DNA from: an uncultured Chloroflexus sp.
GTDB taxonomy: Bacteria; Chloroflexota; Anaerolineae; Anaerolineales; Villigracilaceae
NCBI GenBank assembly: GCA_964478375.1
Contig: CAYZIQ010000001.1
Span: forward strand, 8,019-57,418
Reading direction: 5' to 3'
DNA length: 49,400 bases
The notes beneath the pieces are model-generated. The model worked only from the letters and a program-made list of their open reading frames with translations. It ran no database searches and had not been told where the DNA came from. Position numbers and translations under genes: made by a program. This document shows, in pieces, positions 1,851-49,235 of this stretch (positions are counted from its first letter, which is position 1; each line of letters begins with the position of its first letter).

Positions 1851-1892
1851 ATAACACGTGATACATAACACGCAAAATTTGATACCTGACAC
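1851..1892. repeat. Period-7 (14) short tandem-repeat tract forming the 5' leader of the recombinase-like gene
   Basis: Units ataacac gtgatac ataacac gcaaaat ttgatac ctgacac, running straight into the SD aaggagg and the ATG at 1911. Confidence 0.6.
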
Positions 1893-1910
1893 GGATGTAA
1901 GGAGGTTCTT

Positions 1911-2831
1911 ATGTCCGATCCATCCTCCACGGCCCACCTCTCGGCCCAGACAGCCCTCATCCCGGCCATCAATGCCTGGGAGATTTACTTGAACGATCAG
2001 GGGCGTTCCCTTAACACCATCAAAGCCTTTCTTTCCGACGTGCGTCTGCTGACGAATTTTCTGCCCCCCGATCGCACGTTGGGTGCCATCACCACCAATG
2101 ATTTGAACAGCTTCCTGAATTGGCTGGAAAAAGAGCGCGGTGTGCCGTGCAGCCCCAAGACGCTGGCCCGGCGTATCACCGCCCTGAAATCCTTCTTCCG
2201 CTGGCTGCAAAAGGGAGGCGCCCTGCTGGTTGACCCGGCCGAGAAAGTCGTCCAACACTCGGTCATCAGCCCCCTGCCCGAGGTGCTGACCGAGACCGAG
2301 GTCGAGGCCGTGATGCTGGCTTCTGACCGTCACCGCCGCAAGCCGAAGTCGGACGCCCGTCCCTACGCGTTGCTGGCTCTGTTGCTCGCCACTGGCGTCA
2401 AGAAGTCCGAATGCCTGGGCATCCACCTGAACCACATTGACCTGGAGGCACCCGGCGGGCCGCTCGTCTTCATCCGTTATGCCAGCCCGGCCAATCGCTA
2501 CAAGGAACGCAAGATTGCTCTGCCAGACGATTGGATCCCTGTTTATGAGGAATATCTCAGCCAATACGACCCGGTGGATCAACTCTTCCCCTGGTCGCCT
2601 CGGCGGCTGGAGTACCTGCTAGAAGATATCGGCAAAGAAGCTGGTCTGACGAAGCATCTCTCATTCGACATGTGCCGTTGGACAAGCGCCTTGCTGGATA
2701 CCATGAACAATATCGAGCCAGAGAAAATCCGCCAGAAACTGGGCATTTCGAAGATCCAGTGGCGAGAGATCAATATGAAGTTGCGGCAGTTATCGGGAAA
2801 GGCTGCGACGCGAGCGTGGGCTTTCCAATGA
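1911..2831 (+). CDS. Tyrosine recombinase (XerC/D-like, phage integrase family) homologue, apparently missing catalytic residues
   Basis: 306-aa ORF with SD aaggagg. SAM-like N-domain (AWEIYLNDQGRSLNTIKAFLSDVRLL) and integrase-fold C-domain (LLALLLATGVKKSECLGI...KERKIALP...). No Tyr in the last ~70 aa. Confidence 0.8.
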   Translation: MSDPSSTAHLSAQTALIPAINAWEIYLNDQGRSLNTIKAFLSDVRLLTNFLPPDRTLGAITTNDLNSFLNWLEKERGVPCSPKTLARRITALKSFFRWLQKGGALLVDPAEKVVQHSVISPLPEVLTETEVEAVMLASDRHRRKPKSDARPYALLALLLATGVKKSECLGIHLNHIDLEAPGGPLVFIRYASPANRYKERKIALPDDWIPVYEEYLSQYDPVDQLFPWSPRRLEYLLEDIGKEAGLTKHLSFDMCRWTSALLDTMNNIEPEKIRQKLGISKIQWREINMKLRQLSGKAATRAWAFQ

Positions 2832-2834
2832 GAG

Positions 2835-4238
2835 TTACTTCCCCAAGGTGAGTCGAAGAACCCGCTTCGTCTTCTCGGTGACGCGGAAAGGATGCGCCAG
2901 GCGAAAGCCCGGCACCCAGGCGATCTCATCCCCCACACATAACAGCGGCCAATGCGCCCTGGCCCTCTTGGGCAATTTAACGTTGACGAAAAAATCGGAT
3001 AGCTTGATAGACTGTCCCTCCATGCCGAGCGGCTGAAAACGATCAGCGGCGCGGCGCGGTCGAACCTGGAGTCTGCTCCCGGTTAAATCGGCATCCAGCC
3101 ACGCTGTCCAGTTGTCAGTGTTCAGTGGACAGTGTTCAGTGTTCAGCGGACATTCTTCGACCTTCAACACCCACCCACCCCCAAGTTCACACTGATTACT
3201 GATAACTGAACACTGACCACTGACTTGCGGCCATTGTGAAAAAGGCAGATCCGCCTCGTAAGCGGCGAGGTAGAGCTTTCCGCTTTCCCAAAAAAGGTAC
3301 AACCCGTTTACGAGGTCAACCTGTTTTCCACCGGGAGCCTCGGCGAACACTGCCGCGCGCTCCAGCGCCTCGAAACCGAGATCCCGGCTATCGGGGCGCA
3401 GCAACTCGGCCGCGCGGCGGATCAGATTCCGCCGCAAGCCCAGCGAGACGTCTGCCAACTTCTCGCGGTCAAAAGCCATGAATCCAGCGCCGCGTTCCGT
3501 CAGACAATCCTGCCAGGCTTTGTCCAGCATCTCCTCCAGCGCGGCGTAATCGCCCTGCAAGGCGCGCGCTGACCGGAGGAGGGTCTTTTTGAAACGGGGA
3601 TTATAGGCTTCGAGTTCGGGGATCAGAGTCAGGCGCAAACGATTACGGAAATAAGTCTGATCGGCGTTGGAAGGGTCGAAATGGGGTTGCAGGCCGTGGT
3701 CGTGGCAATAGGATTCGGTCTCGCTGCGCCACAAGGAAAGCAATGGCCGCACGATGGGAATCTCAGGATCGAAGCTCGGAAGAATGCTGCGGTAAGTCAT
3801 GCCCCTCAAGCCAGCCAGCCCAGCGCCGCGCAAGAAATGCATCAGCACCGTCTCTACCTGATCGTCGGCGGTGTGACCGACGGCCACGGCCTGGGCGCCA
3901 TGCTCGCGAGCTTGCGCGAAGAGGAAGCGATAACGCAGCGTGCGGGCAGCCTCTTCGATGGAGAGCATATCACGTTCCGCAAAGGCGCGCACATCGGCAG
4001 ATGCGGTCTCGAAGGGCAGGTTCAGGCTGCGCGCCAGTTCAGCGACAGCTGTCGCTTCCAGGTCCGCTTCGGGGCGCAGCTTGTGGTTGAAGTGTGCCAC
4101 GACGACCGGATATCCCGCCTGATGCAAAACGTTCAGCAGGCACAGACTATCCGGGCCGCCCGAAATGCCCGCCAAAACGGGTAAGCCGGGGGTTAAGCCA
4201 CAAGATTGGCGCAAAATCAAGTCAAGCTGATCAAACAT
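2835..4238 (-). CDS. tilS: tRNA(Ile)-lysidine synthetase
   Basis: 467-aa ORF. PP-loop motif GISGGPDSLCL, HTADDQVETVLM, and TilS C-terminal domain (RPRRAADRFQPLGMEGQSIKLSDFFVNVKLPKRAR). Confidence 0.9.
   Translation of the reverse strand: MFDQLDLILRQSCGLTPGLPVLAGISGGPDSLCLLNVLHQAGYPVVVAHFNHKLRPEADLEATAVAELARSLNLPFETASADVRAFAERDMLSIEEAARTLRYRFLFAQAREHGAQAVAVGHTADDQVETVLMHFLRGAGLAGLRGMTYRSILPSFDPEIPIVRPLLSLWRSETESYCHDHGLQPHFDPSNADQTYFRNRLRLTLIPELEAYNPRFKKTLLRSARALQGDYAALEEMLDKAWQDCLTERGAGFMAFDREKLADVSLGLRRNLIRRAAELLRPDSRDLGFEALERAAVFAEAPGGKQVDLVNGLYLFWESGKLYLAAYEADLPFSQWPQVSGQCSVISNQCELGGGWVLKVEECPLNTEHCPLNTDNWTAWLDADLTGSRLQVRPRRAADRFQPLGMEGQSIKLSDFFVNVKLPKRARAHWPLLCVGDEIAWVPGFRLAHPFRVTEKTKRVLRLTLGK
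3111..3225. repeat. Two inverted heptamer arrays flanking a 38-nt core, in frame inside tilS
   Basis: Left arm 3111-3152: gttgtca gtgttca gtggaca gtgttca gtgttca gcggaca. Right arm 3191-3225: actgatt actgata actgaac actgacc actgact. The reverse complement of the right arm nearly matches the left arm (cagtgg[a/t]cagtgttcagt). Confidence 0.8.
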
Positions 4239-4247
4239 GGGTTAAGT

Positions 4248-5102
4248 CTATTGTGAAAAAGCCAGCCGCACGTAATCGGTCTTTTTACGGCCAAACAACC
4301 CGGCGACCAAATGATAGAGCGCGTACAGCTCCAGCGAAAACGGCAGGTAGCCGCCGTAACCGAGCAAGGGCATCTCAAAAACCTTGAGCCAGCCGCCCAA
4401 GGCGACGTGATAAATCCATTTCGGATACGAGTAGAAATTCCACATCTCCCAGAAGAAAGCCGTCAACAGCACGCCCAGCCAGAGCGAAACCACCGGGCAC
4501 CAGTCGCCGTGACGGGTGTATTCGGCCAGGGAGCGGTTGCCCAGCCAAATGTTGAGAGGTTCCAGGATGAAGTAGACAGAAAGCCAGAGGAATGGAAAGA
4601 AAAGGCGCGGCCAGGTCAACATCGAGGCCAGCATGACCCAGCCGGCGATGAAAAAGCCAATCGTGGTCGGTCTATTCGGGCGGATGACCAGTCCGCGGCC
4701 TAAGCGCTTGACAAAGCCAAAGCTGGCAACCAGTTCGGCGCTGCCGAAGACGGCCGGAATGACGGTGGTAAAACTCAAAGTCGTCCAAAGGTCATATTGC
4801 AGCGGCGTAAAACTTGATATGCCTACGTAGACCCAATTCTGCGTGCGCAGGTTGAGCGCCTCGAACAGCCACCAAACCGGCGCGGAGACGAGGAACAGGC
4901 CGACGTATTTCCGCCAGCCGCGCGCCAGCAACGAGGTGGCAGTGCGATAGAAGACCAGCGCGTCTACCGTCAGGCAGTAGCCTAGCCAGAGTGGGAAGAA
5001 AGCCCAGTATGTGCGTAGCCCGCTCAGGGTCCAATTGAGCGTCCAGAAGACGGCAACGAGGGCGAGGCCGATCCAGCCGTGGAGAGGGAACTTGGCTTTC
5101 AT
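4248..5102 (-). CDS. Polytopic integral membrane protein, function unknown
   Basis: 284-aa ORF, Trp/Phe-rich with about 8 hydrophobic segments. ATGA start/stop overlap with the upstream epimerase gene. TAG stop. Confidence 0.6.
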   Translation of the reverse strand: MKAKFPLHGWIGLALVAVFWTLNWTLSGLRTYWAFFPLWLGYCLTVDALVFYRTATSLLARGWRKYVGLFLVSAPVWWLFEALNLRTQNWVYVGISSFTPLQYDLWTTLSFTTVIPAVFGSAELVASFGFVKRLGRGLVIRPNRPTTIGFFIAGWVMLASMLTWPRLFFPFLWLSVYFILEPLNIWLGNRSLAEYTRHGDWCPVVSLWLGVLLTAFFWEMWNFYSYPKWIYHVALGGWLKVFEMPLLGYGGYLPFSLELYALYHLVAGLFGRKKTDYVRLAFSQ

Positions 5103-5509: not shown

Positions 5510-5646
5510 AAGATTCTCCGTGATGTTTTCGGCAATTCTACCCTTGTTCGACAATCAGCGGCGGGATAGATGGGCCGGCGCGGCGTACGGCAAAGGTTGC
5601 ATGGCCTTGATGGCGGTAAAAGATGTGAGCGTCATCACGAATTTGC

Positions 5647-6108: not shown

Positions 6109-6116
6109 CTTGTCTC

Positions 6117-6800: not shown

Positions 6801-6863
6801 TGTCACGTGTCATGTGCCGGGTGCCGTGTGACGGGTGGCGGGTGTCACTCGCCACTCGTCACG
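6801..6863. repeat. Nine-unit heptamer tract with internal hairpin, spanning the SDR leader and the 3' end of the M23 gene
   Basis: tgtcacg tgtcatg tgccggg tgccgtg tgacggg tggcggg tgtcact cgccact cgtcacg. 6828-6844 pairs with 6846-6862 (15/17). Confidence 0.75.
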
Positions 6864-11122: not shown

Positions 11123-11134
11123 TGGAGATCTACT

Positions 11135-16567: not shown

Positions 16568-16735
16568 ATGGATTCCAAAACTTTCTCCATCCTCGAATAC
16601 CCCAAGATCCTGGCCCGCCTGGCAGACTTGTGCGATTTCTCCACCTCGGTGAACCTGACGCACACGCTCACGCCCCATTTCGGCATCGCCGTCATTCGCC
16701 TGGCCGAAACGACCGAGGCGCGCAGGCCAGGATGT
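16568..16735 (+). pseudogene. mutS2: 5' remnant of endonuclease MutS2 gene (about the first 55 codons only)
   Basis: MDSKTFSILEYPKILARLADLCDFSTSVNLTHTLTP....LAETTEARR matches the conserved MutS2 N-terminus. Homology stops where the convergent cupin gene begins; the rest of the roughly 800-aa protein is absent. Confidence 0.55.
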
Positions 16736-16771
16736 AGATCACACCCCATTCCCCTCTTTTTGAAAATTACT

Positions 16772-17095
16772 TTATACTCGTATCATCGTCAAGAGCATCT
16801 TGAATTGCTTTGTCGCCCTCACGGCGTGAGGTTGGTTCGCAGGCATGATAATGGTTTCGCCTGCCTTCAGCCGAAACGGCTGACCGGAGATACTGATCTC
16901 TGCTTCACCGTCCAGCAAATGGACAAGGGCATCGAACGGAGCGGTATGCTCGCTCAACTCCTGGCCAGCGTCGAAGGCGAATAGGGTCACATTGCCGGCT
17001 CCACCCTTGAGGATAACGCGGCTGACGACAGCACTCTCCTGGTAGCCGATCAAGTCAGCGATGGTTAGGATTTGGGCGGCGGGGGTAGTGGACAT
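16772..17095 (-). CDS. Cupin-domain protein
   Basis: 107 aa from MSTTPAAQ (SD aggaga). GNVTLFAFDAGQELSEHTAPFDALVHLLDGEAEISISGQPFRLKAGETIIMPANQPHAV. The upstream part of the ORF-track entry (to 17449) is non-coding and repeat-derived. Confidence 0.8.
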   Translation of the reverse strand: MSTTPAAQILTIADLIGYQESAVVSRVILKGGAGNVTLFAFDAGQELSEHTAPFDALVHLLDGEAEISISGQPFRLKAGETIIMPANQPHAVRATKQFKMLLTMIRV

Positions 17096-19406: not shown

Positions 19407-20252
19407 TTACAAGAAGGTTTCCATCAACTCGCCGACCTGAGCCATGTTGAACACCGGCCCGTCCACGCAGATGAGCTTCGTGCCCAGGTTACAGCGTCCG
19501 CATTTGCCCAGGCCGCAGTGCATGCGCGCCTCCAGCGTGACGTAGCTATCCTTCAAGGCAAAACCCATCTGCGCCAACATGCGCGTCACGTAGTAGATCA
19601 TGATCGGCGGACCACAGGTAATGGTGACGGCGTTCTCCGGCGAGGGGGCCACCTTTTCGAGCAACTGGGTGATCAGGCCTACGTTGTGATCCTACTTCTC
19701 GTCCGCCTGGTCAACGGTCAGGTGCAGGCTGGTATCCGGCGCGGCGCGCTACTCGTCGTACTCGTCGGTAAAGACCAGCAAGGAAGGGAGCCGGGCAGCC
19801 CACAGGATGGTCAACCGGCCGTAGTCGGCGCGGTGATCCAACACAGTCTGGATGACGGGACGCAGCGGCGCACCGCCGATCCCGCCGCCCAGTACGATGA
19901 GATTCTTGCCCTTGAATTGATCCATCGGGAAGCAATTGCCCAACGGGCCGCGCACGCCGACGATGTCGCCTTCGCCCAGCTCATGCAGGCCGGTCGTCAC
20001 GGACCCGAGCCTGTTGACCGCGAAATCCACGCACGGCCCACGCTGGGGCGTGTTGGCGATGCCGAAGGGCGCCTCGCCGAATCCGAAGGCCGAGACGAAG
20101 GCAAACTGTCCGGGCTGATAGGCGCTGAAAGCTTCGCTGCCGCCGTTCATCAACTCAACGCGGAAGAGTTTGATCTCGGTCGCCAGGTCTTTGACCGCGA
20201 CCAGCTTGCCCAGAAAGGGCTTCATCGGATTTTGGTTTCGAGAATCGCTCAT
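19407..20252 (-). pseudogene. FlxA/HydG/AsrB-like FAD-NAD(P)-binding oxidoreductase with C-terminal 2Fe-2S site; single frame interrupted by two in-frame TAG codons (19749-19751, 19692-19694)
   Basis: The ORF-track pieces 19749..20273 and 19407..19664 and the 84 nt between them are one frame: ...LVFTDEYDE-TAG-RAAPDTSLHLTVDQADEK-TAG-DHNVGLITQLLEKVAPSPENAVTITCGPPIM...CGLGKCGRCNLG. Start placed at MSDSRN (SD aaggag). Either a pseudogene or read-through. Confidence 0.7.
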
Positions 20253-20260
20253 GACTTTCT

Positions 20261-20295
20261 CCTTACGTTTCACGCTTTATGCCTTAATGCGATTC
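20261..20295. repeat. Heptamer tract forming the leader/SD region of the flxA-like gene
   Basis: ccttacg tttcacg ctttatg ccttaat gcgattc. Confidence 0.6.
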
Positions 20296-20371: not shown

Positions 20372-21394
20372 TTATCTTGCCAGGTCTGTCAGCACTTCGG
20401 TGATATCCACGTTGACCGGGCAGATGTCCACGCAGCGGCCGCAGCCGGTGCAGGCAGAGGCTGTGCCCAGTCCATACTGTTCGGGGTAATAATAGAATTT
20501 GCAGAAGAAGCGGTTGCGCAGGCGCTCACTTTTTTCGGCGCGCTGGCGGTGGCCTCCGGCAATGCGCCGGTAGTTCTCGCCCTCGCACGAGTCCCAGCAA
20601 CGGATGCGCTCGAACGCGCCCACAGCCGGCACGCCCGGCGCATAGGGCAACACCTCGTCACGGATGATGAAGCAGCGGCAGGTCGGGCAGACGTAGGTGC
20701 AGGCGCGGCAGGAGAGACAGCGCTCCGACATGCGCGGCCAATACTCGCTGGTGAAACGCGCCGGCCAAGAAATGGATTGAGGATCGGGGATTGGGGATTG
20801 TAGATTTGAGATTTTAGATTGCAGATTTGAGCACTCGAAATCGTCAATCGTAAATTGTAAATCGGAAATCAAGCTCTTTCCTTTTTCCGTCACTGTCTCG
20901 ACGACGTAGCCGCTCTCGACCTCGTAGAGCATCACGTCCATATCGCTGGCTTCATCCGGCGCGCCGCCGACCGAGGTGCAGAAGCAGGTCGGCCCCATCT
21001 CTTTGCAGGCCAGGCCCACGAGCGCGGTATTGGCGAGGCGGCGGGCGTAATAGGGGTCAACCGGCTCTTTGTCCAGGAAGAGCGCATCCAGAATCTTGAC
21101 GCCGCGCGCGTCGCAGGGGCGCACGCCGAAGAGCACCTGTTCGCCTTCCGGCAGATTCTCAATGAGCTTGACGCCGCCGTCGCTTTTCTCGATGGTCAGC
21201 AGACGCTCGGTCAATGAAAAGAAGGCCTCCTTGACCGACATGACCGTCCGGCCAAAGCCCCAGGCGATCTCCTGGCTGCTCTCCACAGGCCGGTAGAGCA
21301 GGACGCCGGCCACCTCGTGCGGCGCGATCAGCGTCCGCTGGCGGGCAAGGCCATCCAACCATTCGGCCAATTGGGCTTGGGTGATGAAGTTCAT
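20372..21394 (-). CDS. FlxB/AsrA/HydB-like iron-sulfur subunit (4Fe-4S dicluster)
   Basis: 340 aa. N-domain ...LFGVRPCDARGVKILDALF. C-terminal CLSCRACTYVCPTCRCF ... CTGCGRCVDICP. Contains an in-frame repeat insertion. Confidence 0.8.
   Translation of the reverse strand: MNFITQAQLAEWLDGLARQRTLIAPHEVAGVLLYRPVESSQEIAWGFGRTVMSVKEAFFSLTERLLTIEKSDGGVKLIENLPEGEQVLFGVRPCDARGVKILDALFLDKEPVDPYYARRLANTALVGLACKEMGPTCFCTSVGGAPDEASDMDVMLYEVESGYVVETVTEKGKSLISDLQFTIDDFECSNLQSKISNLQSPIPDPQSISWPARFTSEYWPRMSERCLSCRACTYVCPTCRCFIIRDEVLPYAPGVPAVGAFERIRCWDSCEGENYRRIAGGHRQRAEKSERLRNRFFCKFYYYPEQYGLGTASACTGCGRCVDICPVNVDITEVLTDLAR
20774..20871. repeat. 14-unit heptamer array with inverted halves, in frame inside the FlxB-like CDS
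   Basis: ggattga ggatcgg ggattgg ggattgt agatttg agatttt agattgc agatttg agcactc gaaatcg tcaatcg taaattg taaatcg gaaatca. gatt units on the left face aatc units on the right. Encodes ...FECSNLQSKISNLQSPIPDPQSISW. Confidence 0.8.
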
Positions 21395-21395: not shown

Positions 21396-22751
21396 TTAGC
21401 CTTCCTTGTACTCGCCAGAGAGGATGGTGACGACCGGCAACGGGACAGGCTTCATACCCGCCCGGTGTCCGAAAGCCGCTTCGATTTCTTGTGCCATCTT
21501 CATATTGAGCAGGCTGATGGGAATGTTCATCGGGCAGGCCCGCTCGCACTCGTTGCAGCCCACGCAACGTCCGGCCAGGTGATAAGCGCGTCCCAGGTGG
21601 AAGGCGCGCTTCTCGTTCATGTTGACGCCCATGCCGATCCACAGCGAGTCATCGCGCTCGTACAGGCAGACTGGACAGTTGCACATCGGGCAGGCCTGGC
21701 GGCAGGCATAGCAGCGGATGCAACGGTCGAACTGGCTCAACCAGAATTCCATGCGCTCGGCCGGGGTCTTCTTCTCCAACTCTGTGATCTTGAGCGCCAC
21801 AGGCGTGGGATGTTCAGGCACTGGAGCGGGGGGCTTACCGATGAGCACGTCGTACACTACTGGCACGCGGTCATTGCACGTCTGGCAGCGGGCCTGCAGG
21901 ACGCCGCGGTCGTGCTGAGTGCCTTCGCAGGTCACGCCGATGATGTAGACCTGCTCGCGCATGAATTGGTTTTCGGTCAGCAGCACGTTGATGGCGCGGC
22001 TGTCGCAGGGCTTGACCACCACCGCCATCGGCTTGGGCTGCTCGATGCCCTTGACCGCCGGGCGACGTTTCTTGCCCAGGTAGGTTGTCAGATTATAGGT
22101 GCAGTCGGGGTTCCAGACCAGCTTATCGGCCTCCTCCGGCGTGTTAGCAAAGGAGGGCCGCGTCCGGCCGCGCGGGCCGACCTCGTATCCGACCACGTAT
22201 CCGACCACGCCGTTGTTGAGCAGCTCCTTGGCCTTGGCGCGGATGGCATCCGTCTTGGCGGCGCAATCGTGTTCGACCAGCGGCACGTCGCCGCGGAGTG
22301 CGGCGAACTGCTGTGTCAGCGCGGGCACCTCGCCGCGCGGCACGCGCCACTTGACCGGGCCCAGTGCCCGCACCGTATCCACGAACTCGGTGGCGATGCG
22401 TGAGAAGCGTTCGCCCTCCGAAGCCGAGACCCAATCCAGGCGCAGGCGTTCGGGTTCGAGGCCGGCATAGCCCATCAACGCCCGCAAGATGGGCAGCCGC
22501 TTGGCGGCACGGTGGTTGCCAGTCTCGTAGTGACATTCGCCGATGTGACAGCCCAATATCAACACGCCGTCCGCGCCCTGGTCGAAGGTGCGCATGACCA
22601 GCTCCGGCGAGACGCGCCCCGAACACGGCACGCGGACATCGCGCACGTTGGCCGGCGATTTCATGCGGGCAATGCCCGCCGTATCCGCGCCAGTGTAGGA
22701 ACACCAGGTACACAGGTAAGCAATTATTCTCGGTTCATAAGCCACGACCAC
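21396..22751 (-). CDS. MvhD/FlxD-like domain fused to a FlxC/AsrA-like Fe-S domain
   Basis: 451 aa. N-terminus IIAYLCTWCSYTGADTAG...VPCSGRVSPELVMRTFDQGADGVLILGCHIGECHY (MvhD). Middle VVKPCDSRAINVLL. C-terminus CIRCYACRQACPMCNC...CVGCNECERACP. Overlaps or abuts neighbouring genes. Confidence 0.8.
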   Translation of the reverse strand: MVVAYEPRIIAYLCTWCSYTGADTAGIARMKSPANVRDVRVPCSGRVSPELVMRTFDQGADGVLILGCHIGECHYETGNHRAAKRLPILRALMGYAGLEPERLRLDWVSASEGERFSRIATEFVDTVRALGPVKWRVPRGEVPALTQQFAALRGDVPLVEHDCAAKTDAIRAKAKELLNNGVVGYVVGYEVGPRGRTRPSFANTPEEADKLVWNPDCTYNLTTYLGKKRRPAVKGIEQPKPMAVVVKPCDSRAINVLLTENQFMREQVYIIGVTCEGTQHDRGVLQARCQTCNDRVPVVYDVLIGKPPAPVPEHPTPVALKITELEKKTPAERMEFWLSQFDRCIRCYACRQACPMCNCPVCLYERDDSLWIGMGVNMNEKRAFHLGRAYHLAGRCVGCNECERACPMNIPISLLNMKMAQEIEAAFGHRAGMKPVPLPVVTILSGEYKEG

Positions 22752-22775: not shown

Positions 22776-22838
22776 GACGCGGATTAACGCGGATATACGC
22801 GGATTTCAATAGCTTCTCTCCGCGTTTTCCGCGCTCGT
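22776..22838. repeat. Period-10 tandem repeat in inverted arrangement across the hdrA1 stop codon
   Basis: acgcggatta acgcggatat acgcggattt, then ctccgcgttt tccgcgctcg (inverted cgcgga cores). Confidence 0.6.
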
Positions 22839-31198: not shown

Positions 31199-32992
31199 TT
31201 ATTCGTCCCTTCGATGTTCTTCGTGGCTAACATCTGCCAACATTCCCATCTCCGCCAGCGCGGCTAGCACTTTACCCTGTGCTCCTGTCTTGACAATCAC
31301 CGTCGTCGGGCCAAGGATCTCGCCCAAGAAACGCCCAGCTTTGGATTTTCGCAGCTCGTCCAGGACCTCAGGCCGGCTGACCCGCAAAATGACCAGATTC
31401 TCGATCCGCGCCTCGGTGCCGTTCACTTCCCAGCGTTTGAGCGCTTTGACGAACACAAGCGGAATCTCGGCCGCGGCGTTCTTCGCCAGCAGGCTGAGCA
31501 ATTGGCGTACTTTAAGTCCCTGCTCTTTGGCTTTCTTCAGCGAATGGGTGCTGACACGATAGTGATACTCGTCAGGCATGGTCTCGATACGCCGCCGGTG
31601 GTCGAGTAGTCCTGCAGGGACGTACACTTGCACCTGCGGCACACTTGCCCCGGACGCAAGTGCTGGGGAGTGCAGGTGTCGAGACCCGGCGGCTACTCGA
31701 CCAACATCTTCCCATTCGCAGAACCGGGAAATTTGATACCTGGCTGCACGCGGCAGCAATCTTGGGATAGTGATCTTGCCCTGGGAAAAAACGTGGAGTT
31801 TGCCCATTTCGTCGAACGTCGAACGTCGAGCGTCTGACATTTGACCTTCGACGTTCGACACAACGCGAAAAGCCGTGACCGTTTTGCCCCCCTCCGGCGT
31901 CGCCAGGTCAATCCTCCCCAGCCAGAACAGCGGGCCAGTGATGAAATAGCGGATAAGCGCGCCGTCCACCTCGTCCCAATGCTCGAAGCCGCGCAGGTAG
32001 GCCTCGCTGTCGGTGCGGCGGATGAACCACGAGTCGTAGTCGCCGGCCGGACGCTGGAAGTCGGGATATTTCTCCTTGATGGCGTGGACGAAGGCGGGCA
32101 AGCTCCACCATTTGTCTATGGGGATGGTGTCCAAAAAAGCGAGCAAAAAGTGACGAGTGACGAGTGATGAATTCTTCCATTCTCCTTCGCAGACAAGCCC
32201 TGGAATCTGCCGAAGTTCGTTGAAGGTTTCGCTCGTCTGCCAAGCTTCGGCCAGCATGGATAAGGCTTGCGCCCTTGGCATTTCGAGAAACGATTTAACT
32301 TTATCGGCCAGCGGTTCGTCCCCCGCCAAGATGCCAGCCGCCTGCAAAAAGCCGCACACCACGTTTACCGGCACGATGGTTTCCGGCGGTTGCATGTCCA
32401 TCCGCAGGGCTGCCAGCAAGGTAGTGGCATCGTCAAGGAGGCGGTCAGAGGCAGGGAGAGGACGTTCGCGTTCCTTTGGTGCAGCCGGGCGGCCCAAAGG
32501 CTCATCACCTTTATTAACCACAAAGGGCACTACGTTTTTTTCTTTTTCCCCTTTGTGACCTTCGTGGTGAATTATTATTAGCAGATCATCGGGAATGTAC
32601 GCGAATTCCTGCGGGCCGGTCGGGGTATCGAAAAATGCCCGGGCGAGAAAGGCGCGGTAGAAAAGCGTCTCTGCGGCAGAGGCGGGATGGAGGTACACCT
32701 GTTCCCGGTCGCGGCGGCCGGGGCCGATCTCGCGTATCTCACCGAAGCGACGTACAAACGTCGCCCACGGCATGCGGCCACCCTCCTCAATTAGAACCTC
32801 GAGCGCGGACTTCGCCTCAGCGGAGAGTGAGTCCACGATCTCGCCGACCAGCGCCGGGTCGAGCAGCGCGGCGGCCAGTTCCTCCAGCGCCGCCTCCATC
32901 TCGGCAGACTTCAGTTCCTCGCCCCACAGTCCGGCCACGATGCGCAGGTGACCGAGGTCACGGGATTGGAGGGAGTGGAGCAGGTCAGGCAT
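31199..32992 (-). CDS. Hypothetical 597-aa protein; C-terminal region resembles the XPB/Ssl2 N-terminal (Helicase_C_3) domain
   Basis: C-terminus YHYRVSTHSLKKAKEQGLKVRQLLSLLAKN...ENLVILRVSRPEVLDELRKS. Domain call is from memory. Contains two in-frame repeat tracts. Confidence 0.6.
   Translation of the reverse strand: MPDLLHSLQSRDLGHLRIVAGLWGEELKSAEMEAALEELAAALLDPALVGEIVDSLSAEAKSALEVLIEEGGRMPWATFVRRFGEIREIGPGRRDREQVYLHPASAAETLFYRAFLARAFFDTPTGPQEFAYIPDDLLIIIHHEGHKGEKEKNVVPFVVNKGDEPLGRPAAPKERERPLPASDRLLDDATTLLAALRMDMQPPETIVPVNVVCGFLQAAGILAGDEPLADKVKSFLEMPRAQALSMLAEAWQTSETFNELRQIPGLVCEGEWKNSSLVTRHFLLAFLDTIPIDKWWSLPAFVHAIKEKYPDFQRPAGDYDSWFIRRTDSEAYLRGFEHWDEVDGALIRYFITGPLFWLGRIDLATPEGGKTVTAFRVVSNVEGQMSDARRSTFDEMGKLHVFSQGKITIPRLLPRAARYQISRFCEWEDVGRVAAGSRHLHSPALASGASVPQVQVYVPAGLLDHRRRIETMPDEYHYRVSTHSLKKAKEQGLKVRQLLSLLAKNAAAEIPLVFVKALKRWEVNGTEARIENLVILRVSRPEVLDELRKSKAGRFLGEILGPTTVIVKTGAQGKVLAALAEMGMLADVSHEEHRRDE
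31809..31864. repeat. Heptamer array with inverted halves inside the 597-aa ORF
   Basis: tcgtcga acgtcga acgtcga gcgtctg acatttg accttcg acgttcg acacaac. 31811-31824 is complementary to 31847-31860 (13/14). Confidence 0.75.
32149..32190. repeat. Heptamer tract inside the 597-aa ORF
   Basis: agtgacg agtgacg agtgatg aattctt ccattct ccttcgc. Same gtgacga unit as at the ccmA/ccmB junction. Confidence 0.65.
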
Positions 32993-32993
32993 G

Positions 32994-33035
32994 TTTTACG
33001 TCTCACATCTTATGTTTCACGTATCACGTCCAGAC
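32994..33035. repeat. Heptamer tract forming the leader directly abutting the ATG of the 597-aa ORF
   Basis: ttttacg tctcaca tcttatg tttcacg tatcacg tccagac. Confidence 0.7.
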
Positions 33036-35154: not shown

Positions 35155-35242
35155 AAAGGGATTAGAGAATAGAGATTCGAAAACAGTACTTGCGAGACTA
35201 TTCTCTACTCTCGATTCTCCAATTCCCCTCCCCAAGAATCCC

Positions 35243-37385: not shown

Positions 37386-37425
37386 CTTCCCGCAGGTTGG
37401 CGGAACCCGCGGGAAGTTTTTATTT
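37386..37425. terminator. Bidirectional terminator between convergent genes
   Basis: cttcccgc / gcgggaag stem followed by tttttatttt. Confidence 0.6.
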
Positions 37426-38802
37426 TCCAGCCATAAGCATATCCAATGAGACATTCACTCCCTTTAGAATTACCTCTGTCTGGTTATATTCTCCGGCGCG
37501 CAGCGTGTGATCTGCCTTGACGAGCATCGCTTCGATCAGGCGATTTTCCATGCCCTCAGGGTGGCGTAGAAAATCGGCCACGATGCCGCGTTGACCCATC
37601 ACCTTGTAATCCGGCAGCCAGGCGGTCATGAAATATGCTGAGGGATCGAGGGCCTGCTGGTAGCGGCGGACAGTATCGTAGAATAGCACGCTCAAGCGCA
37701 AGTCGTCGCGCACGGCTTCGGTCACGGTTTGCCCTTTCAAGAACTCGCGGTATTTCGCCTCCAGCTCCGCAAACGTGATCCCAAAATGCGCCTGCAAAGC
37801 CGCATCAATCACCTGCGAGTCGCGCCCATCCGGCGTGGGGCGGATGTCGCGGTAGAAGGCGTCGAATGCACCCCATCCGTAAGATTCGACCATGTAACTC
37901 ACCAGCGCAGCGGCTTCCAGGTAGCCGATCTCGTGCTGTTGGGGATAGAAGTCATCGGCCAGCTTGCCCAGCGGGATATACCAGTCCAATTCGAGCAGGG
38001 CAGCGGCGCGCGGGATGAGCGGCTCCGGCTTGAAATGTCCACCACTCAGGTAGACCGCCAGCCCCTCTTGAAAGATCGTGGGGCGCAGATCTCCACCTGC
38101 GAGAGTATCGAACCAGTGCACGAACTCGTGGTGCAGCACTTGCGCGGTGGCACTGCCAAGATAATCATTATCGAGGTATGAAACATAAATCGCGCTGCCA
38201 GTAAAGCCGCCGTTGCCCAGCACGCGCGGCACGAAAACGACCGGGATTTTCTCGCTCAAGCTCTCGTCCATTCGAACGCTGAGGTCGGCAGCCTGCTCGT
38301 CTGCTACCTGAGCCAGGGAAGCGATGTCTCGACCGGCCGCGGTATCGGTGATGTAATTGAGAATACAGCAATCGCTCGTCACACTTGCCCAGCGCGCCCC
38401 CGGCTCCGGCGGCGGGATTCCACTCTGCGGGTGCAAGGTGACGGTCTCTTGCCAGGTCGGACCGTCGGGGAGGATGGCAAATGTCAGCGTTTCCGGGCCA
38501 GGCTGGAGGTCGCGCGTGTCCCAGGCCCACCACAGGACCGCCTCCGTCCGCCCGGCGACGCCATAGGGGCTGAAGCCGGCGCGTCCCAGCTCTCCCTCAT
38601 CCAAGCTGACCTGTACCTCGTGTCCTTCAGATTTGAATCCGGCCGGCGTCACCGCCTCGAAGCTGACCTGATCGCCGACGTACAACGGGCCATCGGGATG
38701 CGTGATGACGCTGAACTTCTCGGCTGGCGCGGCAGGCGCGGCGCAGGAAGCCAGGAAAATAGTTATCAGTAACCAGTGAACAGTGATCCGTAAATTACGC
38801 AT
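37420..38802 (-). CDS. Lipoprotein, putative MA-clan metallopeptidase-like
   Basis: 460 aa. IFLASC lipobox, HHEFVHWF...FQEGLAVYLSG (HExxH plus downstream Glu). The N-terminal signal peptide is encoded by a heptamer tract. Confidence 0.65.
   Translation of the reverse strand: MRNLRITVHWLLITIFLASCAAPAAPAEKFSVITHPDGPLYVGDQVSFEAVTPAGFKSEGHEVQVSLDEGELGRAGFSPYGVAGRTEAVLWWAWDTRDLQPGPETLTFAILPDGPTWQETVTLHPQSGIPPPEPGARWASVTSDCCILNYITDTAAGRDIASLAQVADEQAADLSVRMDESLSEKIPVVFVPRVLGNGGFTGSAIYVSYLDNDYLGSATAQVLHHEFVHWFDTLAGGDLRPTIFQEGLAVYLSGGHFKPEPLIPRAAALLELDWYIPLGKLADDFYPQQHEIGYLEAAALVSYMVESYGWGAFDAFYRDIRPTPDGRDSQVIDAALQAHFGITFAELEAKYREFLKGQTVTEAVRDDLRLSVLFYDTVRRYQQALDPSAYFMTAWLPDYKVMGQRGIVADFLRHPEGMENRLIEAMLVKADHTLRAGEYNQTEVILKGVNVSLDMLMAGK
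38761..38788. repeat. Heptamer tract (cagt family) encoding part of a signal peptide
   Basis: agttatc agtaacc agtgaac agtgatc. The minus strand encodes RITVHWLLITIF. Confidence 0.65.
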
Positions 38803-40399: not shown

Positions 40400-41395
40400 A
40401 TGAGACTCAAAAATTCGATCACAGACATACCCGGCATCCGCGTGGGGCATGCCCAGGACGACGAGGCGCTGACCGGCTGCACCGTCATCCTGTGTGAAAA
40501 GGGCGCGGTCGGCGGCATGGATCAGCGCGGCGGCGCGCCCGGCACGCGCGAGACCGACCTGCTCAAGCCGGTCAATGCGGTCGATAAAGTCCATGCCGTG
40601 CTGCTTGCGGGTGGCTCGGCTTTCGGACTGGACGCGGCCAGCGGCGTGATGCGCTACCTGGAAGAAAAAGGGATTGGATTTAACACCGGGGTAGCGCGCG
40701 TTCCCATCGTCCCCGCAGCGATCTTATATGACCTGGCCATCGGCCGCGCCGACATCCGACCGGACGCCGAAATGGGCTACCGCGCCGCGGCTTCCGCCTC
40801 AGCTGACGCGCCCGCGGAGGGCAACGCCGGCGTGGGGACGGGGGCGACGGTTGGCAAGATCTTCGGCATGGCCGGGGCGATGAAATCCGGTCTGGGAGCA
40901 GCCAGTATAAATATTGGCGGCGGGATCATCGTCGGGGTTATCGTGGCGGTTAACGCCTTCGGGGATGTGGTTGACCCGCAGACGGGTAAAATCCTGGCTG
41001 GAGCGCGCTCGACCAAACTTGGTCCCATTCGACTTGGCTCACAAGATTATTTTGCCGATACGCTGGTGATGATGAAAACGCAGGCAGGCCGCGCTATTAT
41101 GAAACTGGCGATGAGCCGCAACACGGTCATCGGTGTGGTGGCAACCAACGCCAAATTCACCAAAACCGAAGCGACCAAAATGGCGCAGATGGCGCAGGAT
41201 GGATTGGCGCGCGCCATCCGCCCGGCGCACACCATGTTGGATGGCGATACGATCTTCGCCATGGCCACTGGGCAGAAGAGGGCGGATGTCAGCATCGTGG
41301 GAGCGTATGCAGCCGAGGCCTTCGCCCAGGCAATCGTGAGGGCTGTGAAAGCAGCGAAGCCGGCGGGAGGGTTGCCAGCAGCCAGTGAAAGGTAA
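40400..41395 (+). CDS. P1/S58-family peptidase (DmpA/L-aminopeptidase-like)
   Basis: SITDIPGIRVGHAQDDEALTGCTVILCE...GGAPGTRETDLL...VLLAGGSAFGLDAA... Confidence 0.85.
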   Translation: MRLKNSITDIPGIRVGHAQDDEALTGCTVILCEKGAVGGMDQRGGAPGTRETDLLKPVNAVDKVHAVLLAGGSAFGLDAASGVMRYLEEKGIGFNTGVARVPIVPAAILYDLAIGRADIRPDAEMGYRAAASASADAPAEGNAGVGTGATVGKIFGMAGAMKSGLGAASINIGGGIIVGVIVAVNAFGDVVDPQTGKILAGARSTKLGPIRLGSQDYFADTLVMMKTQAGRAIMKLAMSRNTVIGVVATNAKFTKTEATKMAQMAQDGLARAIRPAHTMLDGDTIFAMATGQKRADVSIVGAYAAEAFAQAIVRAVKAAKPAGGLPAASER

Positions 41396-41488
41396 CCAGT
41401 TTTCAGTCACCAGAAAAAACGACTTGCGTAGGGCAAGCCGTTTTTTCATCCCTCATCACTGATAACTGCTTCCTGATGACTGAACGCT
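41382..41488. repeat. Inverted heptamer arms (cagt / actg family) flanking a 37-nt core that contains a bidirectional terminator
   Basis: Left: ccagtga aaggtaa ccagttt tcagtca ccagaaa. Right: catcact gataact gcttcct gatgact gaacgct. Same architecture and arm family as the tilS insertion. Confidence 0.6.
41414..41446. terminator. Bidirectional terminator between the peptidase and DUF360 genes
   Basis: aaaaaacgacttgc gtagg gcaagccgtttttt (stem flanked by an A-run and a T-run). Confidence 0.7.
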
Positions 41489-41879
41489 AATGCTTTTTAT
41501 GATGCCGCCGACCCTTCAACTCGTCCCGCAAGATCAAGCTCAACACGATGCTGACCGCGCTGACGATCAGCGCGCCGAGGAAGGCGTTCCACCAGAACGG
41601 ATCGGCGATGGCCAGGCTGATCCCGACCAGGTTGCCAACCCAGGCGGTCAAGGCGAAGAGCAGGGTGTTGATGATTAGCGTGAACAGGCCCAGGGTCAAA
41701 ATGATGAGCGGACAGGTCAGCATCTTGAGCAAGGGACGCAACAGGGCATTGACCAGCCCAAAGACGAGAGCCAGCAGCACCACGCCGATCCAGTTGCCTC
41801 CGTAAACAAGTCCGGGCAGGATGGCGATGGCAGCCCAGAGTGCCACCGCATTGATCCCCCAGCGAATGATAAATCTCAT
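41487..41879 (-). CDS. DUF360 / phage holin superfamily IV-like membrane protein
   Basis: 130 aa, 4 TM segments. WGINAVALWAAIAILPG... SD aggagg. TAG stop. Confidence 0.75.
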   Translation of the reverse strand: MRFIIRWGINAVALWAAIAILPGLVYGGNWIGVVLLALVFGLVNALLRPLLKMLTCPLIILTLGLFTLIINTLLFALTAWVGNLVGISLAIADPFWWNAFLGALIVSAVSIVLSLILRDELKGRRHHKKH

Positions 41880-46400: not shown

Positions 46401-46806
46401 AATAGTTTTTGCAGATACCAATCTGTTCCTGCGCTACCTGACGGATGACGTGCCGGCTCAGGCGGACCTGGTAGAGTCGCTCTTGCACTGCGCCGCACAG
46501 GGACAAGTATCTCTTGGCACAACGGGGTTGGTTATCGCTGAAATCGTTTGGACGTTGGAAAGCTACTATCACATCGCGAAAAAGGATATTCAGGCGAAAG
46601 TGCTCGCCATTCTGAACACCGTCGGTCTGGACATAGCAGATTCAGATTTGATCTTGCAAGCCATTGGTTGGTATGTCGAGAAAAACGTGGACTTCATTGA
46701 CGCCTATAACGCCTCCTGGATGCTTAAAAACGGCGTTTGCACAGTTTACACGTTTGATCAGAAACACTTCAGCCGGTTTGAGGGGATTGTTGCGGAAGCA
46801 CCCTAA
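46390..46806 (+). CDS. vapC: PIN-domain toxin (VapC-like)
   Basis: METEIVFADTNLFLRYLTDD...IDAYNASW. Start chosen at the ATG overlapping the vapB stop. Confidence 0.82.
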   Translation: METEIVFADTNLFLRYLTDDVPAQADLVESLLHCAAQGQVSLGTTGLVIAEIVWTLESYYHIAKKDIQAKVLAILNTVGLDIADSDLILQAIGWYVEKNVDFIDAYNASWMLKNGVCTVYTFDQKHFSRFEGIVAEAP

Positions 46807-47766: not shown

Positions 47767-48466
47767 CGTATTCGAATACCATGAACGCCGCAGCGATGAA
47801 GACTACGTCGTAGACGATCAATTGATTGATCCAGGGCGCGATCTCGGCATACCCAATACCCTGCAAAAGGCCGCTGCTAGCCTTGACCGCTGCGATCATG
47901 ACCGGGACGACGACCGGGAAAAGCAGGATCGGCAGGAGCACGTCGCGCGTGCGAGTCTGCACCGCCATGCTGGCCAGTAGCGTCCCGACCGCCACATATC
48001 CGACCGAGCCAAGCAAGATGACGCCGATCAGGCCAGGGTTGAACAGGTTGGCGTTATACAGCACGCTGTAAACTGGCAAGACGATGGCTTCGACGATGAA
48101 CATGAAAGCTAGGTTGCTGATGGCTTTGCCAAAGTAGATTGCGCTGCGATCCACGGGCGCCAGCAGGAGGCCATCCAGGCAGCCGCGGTCCTTTTCGACC
48201 GCCATTGAGCGGTTAAGGCCAAGCGTACCGGCGAAGGCGAAAGTCACCCACAACACACCGGCCGTAACGGTCGAGCGCGTCTTGACGTCCAATTCGAGGG
48301 CAAAATTGAAGATCAGGATGACGAGCAGGGCGAAAACGAGCATGGAAGAGAGTAGCTCACGCGAGCGCAGTTCGGCGGCCAAGTCTTTCCAAGTGATGGC
48401 GGCGACGGCGCGCAGGAAAGAAACGAGTGACGAGTGACGAGTGACGTGTAACTTCTCACTTTTCAC
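47753..48466 (-). CDS. ccmB: Heme exporter protein CcmB
   Basis: 237 aa, 6 TM segments, operon position between ccmA and ccmC. The N-terminal ~13 codons are encoded by a heptamer tract, so the true start is uncertain. Confidence 0.8.
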   Translation of the reverse strand: MKSEKLHVTRHSSLVSFLRAVAAITWKDLAAELRSRELLSSMLVFALLVILIFNFALELDVKTRSTVTAGVLWVTFAFAGTLGLNRSMAVEKDRGCLDGLLLAPVDRSAIYFGKAISNLAFMFIVEAIVLPVYSVLYNANLFNPGLIGVILLGSVGYVAVGTLLASMAVQTRTRDVLLPILLFPVVVPVMIAAVKASSGLLQGIGYAEIAPWINQLIVYDVVFIAAAFMVFEYVVEE

Positions 48467-48479
48467 TTTTTACTTCTCC
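48424..48479. repeat. Heptamer array with inverted halves spanning the ccmA stop and ccmB start
   Basis: cgagtga cgagtga cgagtga cgtgtaa cttctca cttttca cttttta cttctcc. Confidence 0.75.
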
Positions 48480-49171
48480 TGCAATGCCTGACGGTAGAAA
48501 GCCAGGAGTCCATTTCTGCGAATATCTGACCGCCGCACGGAGGCCGCGACCACGCCGCGCGAGAGCACGTCGAAGCGGGAGGCCAGGTCTTCCACCCGCG
48601 CCAGGTCGTGAGAGGTCATAACGACGGTGCGGCCGCGCGCTGCCACGTCACGCAGGACCTTGTCGAGCATGTCGCAGGCGTCCTGGTCAAGACCGGTATG
48701 CGGCTCGTCAAAGAGAATCACCTCCGGGTCGTGAAGCACGGCGCGGCCGATGGCAAGGCGCTGCTGCATCCCACGCGAGAACGTCCGCACCAGGTCGCGG
48801 CGGCGGGCGGAAAGGCCGACCAGCTCCAGCACCTCGCCGATCCTTTGGTCGAGGTGCAGCACGTCGTACATCCGCCCGAAGAAGCGCAGGTTCTCCTCGG
48901 CAGTCAGGTCGCCGTAGAGCAGTGGCATGTGCGAAACCACGCCCAACCTCCGGCGGACAGCAGCCGCCTGAGCCGGCAGAGCATAGCCAGCGATACGAAT
49001 CTCGCCCAGCGAGGGACGAGAGAGCGAGGCCAGAATGCGCAGAAAAGTGGTTTTGCCCGCCCCGTTGGGGCCAAGCAGCGCGACGAACTCACCCTCCTGT
49101 ACCTGAAAATCCACGCCACGCAGGACGGCCTTCAAACCGAAACGTTTGACGAGTTTCTTGACGACAATCAT
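48470..49171 (-). CDS. ccmA: Heme ABC exporter ATP-binding protein CcmA
   Basis: Walker A GPNGAGKTT, signature FSRGMQQRLAIGRA, Walker B ILFDEP. Confidence 0.88.
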   Translation of the reverse strand: MIVVKKLVKRFGLKAVLRGVDFQVQEGEFVALLGPNGAGKTTFLRILASLSRPSLGEIRIAGYALPAQAAAVRRRLGVVSHMPLLYGDLTAEENLRFFGRMYDVLHLDQRIGEVLELVGLSARRRDLVRTFSRGMQQRLAIGRAVLHDPEVILFDEPHTGLDQDACDMLDKVLRDVAARGRTVVMTSHDLARVEDLASRFDVLSRGVVAASVRRSDIRRNGLLAFYRQALQEK

Positions 49172-49193
49172 GGGTCACACTGTCACGGTTTGC

Positions 49194-49235
49194 GCATTAC
49201 GAGACCATAAAACGTGATGCGTAAAACGCAAGGAT
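49194..49235. repeat. Heptamer tract in the ccmA leader
   Basis: gcattac gagacca taaaacg tgatgcg taaaacg caaggat. Confidence 0.6.

Follow-up and report, generated by a model that had tools for sequence, protein, structure and literature searches.

The window analysed here, that is, the whole 49,400-nt stretch of DNA under study, derives from an uncultured Chloroflexus sp. (GTDB Anaerolineales; Villigracilaceae) and corresponds to positions 8,019 to 57,418 of the forward strand of contig CAYZIQ010000001.1 (assembly GCA_964478375.1). It is ordinary chromosome, with genes encoding TilS, a XerC-like recombinase, a Hdr/Mvh-like Fe-S oxidoreductase operon, ClpB and CcmABC, among others, and it is dotted with tandem arrays of short units repeated in strict 7-nt phase, which appear at stop codons, next to start codons and within open reading frames (ORFs). 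An earlier note, made from the letters of the window, had described these arrays as a dispersed family of period-7 tracts in a Chloroflexota-like host. The guess on the host was right, since homologues of three window proteins came from Anaerolineales/Anaerolineae metagenome-assembled genomes (MAGs), and so was the family itself, as the period-7 excess over shuffled sequence makes clear.

A lag-p self-match scan found 7 period-7 tracts in the window, where Markov-2 shuffles led to an expectation of 0.06 (W=28, match of 70% or more), and 11 against 0.38 at a looser threshold, with 0-1 tracts at each of the periods 4, 5, 8, 10, 11 and 13; besides period 7, the scan rose at multiples of 3 only, which reflects coding periodicity. 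Likewise, the same 3-mer recurred at least four times at fixed spacing in 11 runs at period 7 (0.3 expected) and in none at periods 5, 6, 8, 10 and 11 in the window. The frequency of period-7 tracts amounts to 20 to 100 times that of shuffled sequence. Tandem Repeats Finder (TRF) reported period-7 arrays at 3115-3146, 3190-3224, 6814-6844, 20774-20827, 20838-20870, 31810-31834, 32149-32167, 48423-48446 and 48451-48478, together with a period-10 array at 22777-22805. The 7-nt units run head to tail beyond chance length and occupy about 15 loci in 49.4 kb, the two properties by which short repetitive sequences in tandem repetition (STRRs) and heptanucleotide long simple sequence repeats (LSSRs) are recognized, and the arrays are chromosomal, non-mobile heptanucleotide tandem arrays of this kind.

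Strong tracts were those at 3111-3225, 6801-6863, 20774-20871, 31809-31864 and 48424-48479, and moderate ones those at 32994-33035, 38761-38788, 41382-41416 with 41454-41488, and 22776-22838 (period 10); 1851-1892 appeared weak in the window, yet it is backed by orthologues in relatives. Most of the at least 15 tracts listed in the earlier note hold up, with the exception of 20261-20295 and 49194-49235, individually not significant, and of the right arm of 32149-32190, and two inverted arrays, at 1750-1800 and 35158-35228, had been absent from that list. A weak period-7 stretch with a CTC core (CTCGACT CTCCATT CTCTAGT CCTCCAT) was also observed at 16512-16540 on the plus strand, in the leader of ORF 16568..16984, at the loosest threshold only. 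Window 547-14238 is matched at 99.99%, without any change in length, by two further metagenome contigs of the Joint Genome Institute (JGI), the tracts covered by all three assemblies being 1851-1892, the TilS arrays and 6801-6863. Because three independent assemblies carry identical lengths, the tracts are neither assembly artefacts, a possibility raised beforehand, nor rapidly variable.

Each unit comprises a core of 4-5 nt in strict 7-nt phase plus 2-3 free positions, as in CAGTggt CAGTgtt CAGTtat CAGTaat, and 3-10 units form an array. The cores belong to the families CAGT/ACTG, GATT/AATC, GTGA/TCAC, TCGA and GAGA/TCTC, and in 76 arrays scored against the unit consensus the departures from it clustered in few columns (z = 9.1). 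Two layouts could be distinguished. Inverted pairs, in which complementary cores face each other, are located at stop codons, between cistrons, around a terminator and inside ORFs (1750-1800, 3108-3224, 6801-6863, 20774-20870, 22776-22839 with period 10, 31809-31861, 35158-35228, 41382-41488 and 48424-48479), whereas direct arrays adjoin start codons (1851-1892, 20259-20295, 32993-33035 and 38761-38787). The previous view that tracts often face complementary arrays is therefore correct for 9 window loci, where the inverted pairing is genuine, and does not apply to about a third of the tracts, whose direct arrays lie beside start codons. Five proteins include segments translated in frame from arrays: TilS, the N-terminus of CcmB, the signal peptide of a lipoprotein, a helicase-associated protein and a Fer4_22 protein. 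These intragenic copies, already suspected from the window, proved genuine.

Where arrays lie in conserved genes, orthologues can be aligned base by base, and the contrast between core and spacer crosses codon phase. In tilS, read on the minus strand, the 5' mRNA arm (3188..3224) holds five CAGTnnn units translated in frame as VSGQCSVISNQC (TilS aa ~339-350), the hairpin loop (3147..3187) encodes a conserved TilS beta-hairpin, ELGGGWVLKVEEC, and the 3' mRNA arm (3108..3146) holds five to six nnnACTG units translated in frame as (C)PLNTEHCPLNTDNW; in order, the array region reads VSGQCSVISNQC - ELGGGWVLKVEE - CPLNTEHCPLNTDN. Both arms were detected by TRF and are predicted to pair in register (minimum free energy (MFE) -52.9, z = -3.0). 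According to Pfam, the arrays come after the PP-loop domain (aa 21-202) and before TilS_C (aa 390-460), and in the AlphaFold model, with predicted strands at 349-353 and 356-364, the array-encoded segments are coil on either side of the beta-hairpin. The loop segment is conserved in all homologues, array-less ones included, and distant homologues show an ordinary segment of similar length at the array site.

TilS homologues differ in length by 7-aa steps (467/474/481 and 469/476/483), and in the DNA of the orthologues the arms comprise 4-11 units, with gains of 3 or 6 units in each arm independently and a 21-nt duplication in the array of L170. Among equal-length orthologues, identity reached 0.88 at the cores, compared with 0.70 at loop codons and 0.57 at spacers, while 4-fold site identity to the window was 0.49-0.72 (0.49-0.87 in all nine orthologues compared); the spacers drift at about the neutral rate. 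The CAGT/ACTG cores are conserved at all three codon positions, and in every unit read in the xAC TGx phase the base after ACTG is T or G and never A, indicating that a TGA stop is avoided. These arrays are internal to the gene and conserved down to about 70% protein identity.

A comparable arrangement was found in the 'sulfhydrogenase beta'-like Fer4_22 protein (20372..21394), whose linker at aa ~174-207 is encoded by inverted arrays at 20774..20870 on the minus strand (GATTnnn x5 at 20837-20870 and nnnAATC x8 at 20774-20828; TRF), and here too the place of the array is taken in distant homologues by an ordinary segment of comparable length. Since the distant TilS and Fer4 homologues hold a normal segment of similar length there, the arrays originated in place; their length changes in whole units, in threes inside genes, and the conservation of their cores exceeds that of neutral sites. 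Extra in-frame inserts were also seen beside the arrays in several homologues (Fer4 P0130, P0122 and P0127; TilS P0012/L086, P0015, P0018 and P0023), examples being PERSRRVADGGLALSVAEGSQMADSRSQMAKGERQAA, ATCGERSRT and PPTSAPTSSALQLRAS/PSTALKAN, which suggest that these permissive loops also receive further small elements.

The helicase-associated (PF13625) protein (31199..32992) carries two arrays, both on the minus strand. The first is a TCGA hairpin at 31809..31861 (TCGAnnn x2 facing nnnTCGA x3, in frame as VVSNVEGQMSDARRSTFDE; fold z = -4.4), which is kept in L174 and L175, in the latter with one compensatory double change (TAGA/TCTA). The second is a TCACTCG triplet at 32149..32170, whose three perfect units (TRF, 100% match) encode SSLVTRH, a peptide motif conserved in homologues; a hairpin at 32149-32190 was rejected, as periodicity is limited to the first 22 nt, the right arm lacks complementarity and the fold gave z = +0.6. 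The same ORF contains at 31580-31702, on the minus strand, an in-frame near-perfect palindrome of ~120 nt (RNA MFE -60.9 kcal/mol) encoding GRVAAGSRHLHSPALASGASVPQVQVYVPAGLLDHRRRI, missing from most homologues and shorter in a few (GGRVAAGSQSL..QRRI), which looks like an insertion of the type of Rickettsia palindromic elements (RPEs) or miniature transposable elements with inverted repeats (MITEs), unrelated to the heptamer arrays.

Two further translated arrays lie at gene starts, again on the minus strand. In the lipoprotein peptidase gene (37420..38802) the direct array at 38761..38787, ATCACTG TTCACTG GTTACTG ATAACT, encodes the signal-peptide core ITVHWLLIT. It begins at codon 6; a TATAAT lies 7 nt before the ATG and no Shine-Dalgarno sequence is present (window 38800-38815, minus strand), and this mRNA may be leaderless. 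At 48424..48479 (TRF; fold z = -2.3), AAGTnAn x4 facing TCACTCG x3 extends over the stop of ccmA (48470-48472) and, for ccmB, over the Shine-Dalgarno sequence, the GTG start (48466) and the first 14 codons (MKSEKLHVTRHSSLVS). Upstream of ccmA, the weak array at 49194..49235 (minus strand; CGTTTTA CGCATCA CGTTTTA) is doubtful and was detected by none of the TRF, lag-p and 3-mer-run scans.

Other inverted pairs occupy intergenic sites. Just 3' of the LytR_cpsA_psr gene (258..1745), CCCnnnn x3 facing GGGnnnn x3 forms a predicted hairpin at 1750..1800 on the plus strand (MFE -48.8 kcal/mol; TRF match at 1750-1771, period 7). On the minus strand, GTGnnnn units facing nnnnCAC units at 6801..6863 (TRF 6814-6844) cover the final codons of a 241-aa gene, its stop (6845) and the spacer leading to a short-chain dehydrogenase gene, with gene calls taken from the identical contig L001. 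GAGAnnn units facing nnnTCTC units, picked up by the lag-p and 3-mer-run scans at 35158..35228 on the plus strand, fill the spacer between a short-chain dehydrogenase gene (stop 35154) and a FAD_binding_4 gene (ATG 35243), a junction at which L175 has no spacer. Between the convergent genes 40400..41395 and 41487..41879, CAGT-type and ACTG-type arrays (41382-41416 and 41454-41488) flank and extend a bidirectional terminator hairpin (41414-41446), and the region 41382-41488 folds with z = -3.6 on the plus and z = -5.0 on the minus strand. A period-10 relative on the minus strand (22776..22839; CGCGGAnnnn facing ATCCGCGTnn; TRF; fold z = -3.8) starts at the stop codon of gene 22806..25685 and ends before the Shine-Dalgarno sequence of a FlpD-like gene; this hairpin is present in the window and L173, and not in L171 and L172. 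The FlpD-like gene (21396..22751) itself contains at 22177-22209 an in-frame 12-nt tandem repeat, CCGACCACGTAT x2.8 (TRF, 95% match).

Among the direct arrays, the nTGAnAC units at 1851..1892 (plus strand) lie in the 5' untranslated region of the gene for the XerC-like recombinase (1911..2831), downstream of a conserved promoter (1804-1841) and ahead of the Shine-Dalgarno sequence; L003, L166 and L169 have orthologous nTGACAC x4 arrays in this position, and L170 has none. The promoter, a sigma-70-like TTGACT-N17-TAAACT on the plus strand, is kept nearly base for base in L166, L168, L169 and L170, and its position puts the array in the transcribed leader. The short array at 20259..20295 (minus strand; CATAAAG CGTGAAA CGTAAGG) includes in its last unit the Shine-Dalgarno sequence of the NAD_binding_1/DHODB gene; at this junction the relatives show inverted TGTCTAC units (L171), inverted period-8 ATAGTCTC units (L172) or no array (L173). 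The L172 array (11005-11150), in which ATAGTCTC faces AGACTATC (MFE -51.5, z = -5.7), implies that the phenomenon is not strictly confined to 7 nt. The NAD_binding_1/DHODB_Fe-S_bind gene (~19407..20273, minus strand), which is 281 aa long and intact in L171 and L172, shows in the otherwise highly conserved window copy in-frame TAG codons at 19692-19694 and 19749-19751 where relatives have Trp (TGG); they could be due to a recent pseudogene, read-through or sequence error.

Before the helicase-associated gene, the direct array at 32993..33035 on the minus strand (CGTGATA CGTGAAA CATAAGA TGTGAGA CGTAAAA) ends 1 nt before the ATG without a Shine-Dalgarno sequence, and the same site is occupied by nnTGCGT x6 plus ATCTGCn x8 in L174 and by CACTGnn x5 in L175, neither of them with a Shine-Dalgarno sequence. 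As shown at two junctions, intergenic sites keep an array while its unit turns over between species. A single consensus for start-proximal arrays was dropped, since the window displays a GTGA/GTAA theme but the units of the 29 start-proximal arrays in relatives are diverse, and this diversity also led us to discard one sequence-specific site or pairing with the 16S tail at starts. Elsewhere in the window, a MazE-antitoxin/PIN-domain toxin-antitoxin pair was noticed at 46137-46806 (plus strand).

The family extends beyond the window and is enriched in its lineage. In 2.13 Mb of Anaerolineales DNA we counted 141 period-7 arrays, against 33-41 at each of the periods 5, 8, 10 and 11, and 10 inverted pairs at period 7, against 0-1 at neighbouring periods. 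Array density drops with distance from the window lineage, from 23.4 through 10.1 to 5.2 per 100 kb over a background of about 2. Regions near starts hold 20.7% of arrays and make up 8.4% of the sequence, and those near stops hold 10.7% and make up 5.3%, a 2-2.5 times enrichment, with about half of the arrays still within ORFs. The commonest core was ACTG/CAGT (34 of the 141 arrays). Two genes on relatives' contigs, neither of them near an array, may be mentioned here: a Y1_Tnp gene, IS200/IS605-type or like REP-associated tyrosine transposases (RAYTs; REP, repetitive extragenic palindromic), at L169 17468-17803, and a bAvd/23S_rRNA_IVP gene, a possible diversity-generating retroelement accessory, at L171 7744-8121.

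To account for these features we favour, with a probability of roughly 0.45, a reading in which slippage generates the arrays and alters their length where they stand, and selection at the level of the nucleic acid retains them as cis elements at gene boundaries. Replication slippage would create and resize the arrays in situ; in non-coding DNA, one-unit steps would homogenise the units and let the unit sequence turn over between species, and within genes only steps of three units (21 nt, 7 aa) would survive. The conservation of the cores is observed, and its proposed cause would be selection on nucleic acid rather than protein. At stops, terminators and intercistronic sites, inverted pairs might form long stem-loops with imperfect pairing and may act there as REP-type transcript elements in 3'-end protection, processing or translational coupling. 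Direct arrays, in turn, would constitute repeat-built leaders against start codons, sometimes replacing the Shine-Dalgarno sequence, and in-frame arrays would be tolerated only at permissive protein sites such as coil linkers, N-termini and signal peptides.

Folding predictions are in part consistent with this reading. For most inverted pairs the predicted fold brings the arms together in register, at z = -2.3 to -5.7 (window pairs: to -5.0), as the earlier note had anticipated, and the array at 32993-33035 and those at the same site in L174 and L175 appeared unstructured (z = -0.05 to -1.4). Covariation and strand asymmetry, on the other hand, gave the predicted stems no clear support, and these and several other observations speak against slippage followed by selection on paired elements. 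Covariation in the TilS hairpin was about 0 (term +0.45; 7 equal-length orthologues), because the paired cores hardly vary, and over 8 hairpins the sense folds had no advantage over the antisense folds (summed MFE -241 vs -271 kcal/mol), so that a hairpin function of the coding-strand RNA is not favoured over a function at the DNA level or none. Two predicted hairpins are weak (Fer4, z = -1.6; 6801-6863, z = -1.9). Arms vary in copy number independently, and one may decay with the other intact: in L087 the left arm has decayed beside an intact partner, and L172 has a right arm only. Pairing cannot therefore be the sole constraint. Simple slippage also leaves the free spacer positions in conserved units unexplained, and the three near-identical assemblies show no length variation, which means that slippage is not fast.

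Two rivals have to be taken seriously, neutral slippage and a phased binder, while readings as mobile elements, phase variation or artefact are poorly supported. Some of the observations just listed, namely the independent variation of the two arms and the lack of both covariation and sense/antisense asymmetry, would be expected if the arrays were neutral by-products, functionless heptamer microsatellites made by polymerase slippage that persist where harmless, with inverted copies produced by template switching in quasi-palindromes and conserved cores due to concerted evolution within arrays. We hold this to be on the unlikely side, even if it also fits the heptamer excess reported in many unrelated phyla (PMC4679880, PMC4692102), the confinement of arrays to permissive protein segments, the complete change of unit between species at one intergenic site with near-identical units inside each array, and the freshly homogenised arms with altered core in L088 (GTCAGCG x3) and L172 (AATCGTA x4). 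What it explains poorly is the identity of 0.88 at TilS cores against 0.70 at protein-constrained codons and 0.57 at spacers, in all three codon phases, a contrast that persists where 4-fold sites are near saturation. Nor would recent duplication be expected to leave adjacent units sharing the core but not the spacer, and the enrichment at gene starts and stops points the same way.

A conserved core, free spacers and a strict phase are the layout that a different agent would impose, an oligomeric or multi-domain protein that recognizes, in RNA or single-stranded DNA, a core of 3-5 nt recurring every 7 nt, after the manner of HutP on UAG-N4 repeats, TRAP on GAG repeats or cold-shock/S1 domains with footprints of ~7 nt. 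Phased sites of this sort would make sense of single arms that stay intact without a partner and of unstructured direct arrays that abut start codons; the commonest core, ACTG/CAGT, occurs also in STRR1/3 and in the TAACTGA repeats of other phyla (PMC4679880), for which MacGregor proposed binding of S1, Csp or CsrA (PMC4679880). We regard such a binder as less likely still than neutral slippage, given that the many cores per genome and the swaps of unit between species at one site could not all be covered by one sequence-specific reader and that Pfam scans of the window ORFs revealed no candidate protein. A bolder version, which we would rate slightly lower again, sees in the arrays the footprint of a dedicated trans-acting system, a phased oligomeric binder reading 4-nt cores in 7-nt phase, in RNA or single-stranded DNA, and common to the STRRs and the TAACTGA repeats found in cyanobacteria, Beggiatoaceae and Bacteroidota. 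If true, it would explain both the recurrence of the CAGT/ACTG and GATT/AATC cores across phyla and the purifying selection on cores through all three frames of an essential gene.

The two remaining explanations are both very improbable. Like the RPEs, which are hairpin-forming, dispersed and occasionally in frame, the arrays could be non-autonomous mobile elements (MITE-, RPE- or REPIN-like, the last named after REP doublets forming hairpins) that insert intergenically and in frame in genes, and the presence or absence of the period-10 hairpin between relatives, the Y1 transposase gene of L169 and the true in-frame palindromic insert at 31580-31702 agree with some mobility. A mobile palindrome of the MITE or RPE type, discrete and expected in near-identical copies at unrelated sites, was nevertheless rejected: copies differ in unit, length and core, no common element sequence, terminal inverted repeats or target duplications were found, the arms grow unit by unit, the TilS and Fer4 arrays replace a native segment of similar length instead of being added to it, and Pfam scans of about 40 window ORFs revealed no transposase or RAYT. 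Contingency loci, near-perfect repeats whose length varies within populations, so that the reading frame or the promoter spacing is switched, and in which slippage at gene 5' ends would turn expression on and off, would suit arrays located in leaders and at or inside the 5' ends of ccmB and the lipoprotein gene, where a 7-nt unit shifts the reading frame. However, degenerate units suppress slippage, no length difference separates the three independent assemblies at 1851-1892, in the TilS arrays or at 6801-6863, and arrays reside in tilS, presumed essential, whose orthologues differ by in-frame changes only.

Slippage in place followed by selection on nucleic acid remains the reading that we prefer, and the arrays may be instructive even beyond it. 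Heptamer repeats of the STRR kind have been known in bacteria for more than 30 years, and we know of no accepted function for them. In-gene copies that are conserved, the contrast between core and spacer and the turnover of units, none of which figures in the earlier accounts that were consulted, together make the question 'selected or junk' testable. In practical terms, peptides with a 7-aa period and length steps of 7 aa can mislead alignment, domain calling and the choice of start codons in Anaerolineales MAGs.

As regards known systems, the exclusion of CRISPR (clustered regularly interspaced short palindromic repeats) and transposons in the earlier note was well founded, and that of ordinary REPs probably so. 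CRISPR was rejected because the units here measure 7 nt and are contiguous, in contrast to repeats of 23-50 nt with unique spacers of similar length, and no transposase, terminal repeats or target duplications were found in the window. REPs and bacterial interspersed mosaic elements (BIMEs) are hairpins at 3' ends and between cistrons, and RPEs are hairpin DNA carried in frame in permissive parts of proteins. The mode of action that we propose for the arrays is similar, but no element sequence is conserved among them, they show no discrete insertion, and their stems consist of phased tandem units. REP/BIME elements are imperfect palindromes some 35 nt long, whose head tetranucleotide is conserved and which go with a RAYT gene in the genome; the window holds neither a common palindrome sequence nor a RAYT or transposase partner, and a Y1_Tnp gene lies in the related contig L169. 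The whole window gave 0 Rfam matches at gathering threshold, so that the arrays match no curated covariance model.

The closest analogue is indeed, as had been suggested, the cyanobacterial STRR class of 7-nt tandem arrays dispersed over the chromosome. Cyanobacterial STRR heptamers were reportedly described by Mazel in 1990, and the units of the class are CCCCAGT (STRR1), TTGGTCA (STRR2) and CAACAGT (STRR3). The arrays resemble them in their dispersed 7-nt tandem units and in the CAGT core of STRR1 and STRR3. They differ in phylum and in that their units are degenerate, with core and free spacer, whereas STRR units are near-perfect; many cores coexist, about half of the arrays are in inverted pairs, and in-frame copies are conserved across orthologues. 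They are consequently not STRRs in the strict sense of STRR1-3 units of heterocystous cyanobacteria, as the host is an Anaerolineales and only the CAGT core is common. According to Vioque (1997), as cited in PMC4748335, STRRs occur inside a functional RNase P RNA gene, and in a similar way arrays are here carried inside genes.

A second point of comparison is provided by the direct TAACTGA repeats that MacGregor (2015, PMC4679880) reported from marine Beggiatoaceae and from some Cyanobacteria and Bacteroidetes. These repeats abut start codons, often without a Shine-Dalgarno sequence, and in reverse orientation within ORFs they give the peptide LSVISYQ. Their occurrence in ORFs corrects the earlier note, which was not aware of any description of in-frame copies. 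Here, too, ACTG heptamers are found, with ATAACTG/TAACTGA units at 3190-3224, 38761-38787 and 41454-41488; start codons follow arrays after a few nt, with no Shine-Dalgarno sequence at 32993-33035 or at the same site in L174 and L175, and ORF peptides of the LSVISYQ type appear, in this case SVISNQC. Instead of one exact unit in 169 direct sets and one indirect set, however, the present arrays display many units, degenerate spacers and frequent inverted pairs, with TAACTG(A) units merely scattered within degenerate ACTGnnn arrays, and instead of ORF copies that are mostly peripheral or belong to hypothetical proteins there are copies in the interior of tilS, where they are conserved. Chloroflexota are not among the taxa reported for TAACTGA (PMC4679880), and our literature search on heptamer repeats in Chloroflexi or Anaerolinea retrieved nothing relevant.

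The GGGAATC repeats of Xanthomonas and GGGGA(T/C)T of Nostoc are G-rich and have been studied as G-quadruplex formers (Rehm 2015, PMC4692102). They share with our arrays the intergenic location, lengths that differ from one related species to another at a given gene pair, some convergent inverted pairs, seen in Xanthomonas, and the GATT/AATC core of the 20774-20870 array, which contains GGGGATT; most arrays here, unlike those, are not G-rich, and several are translated. As summarized in PMC4679880 and PMC4692102, Mrazek (2007) found heptamers over-represented in many bacteria, proposed slippage as their source and assigned to coding regions the units whose length is a multiple of three. As far as those summaries go, the excess of 7-nt units over neighbouring unit lengths is common to the LSSRs and to the arrays described here, whereas in the latter 7-nt units are able to stay in coding regions because their number changes in threes. 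Against this background, what appears to be new is the phylum, the layout in pairs and the conservation of in-frame copies.

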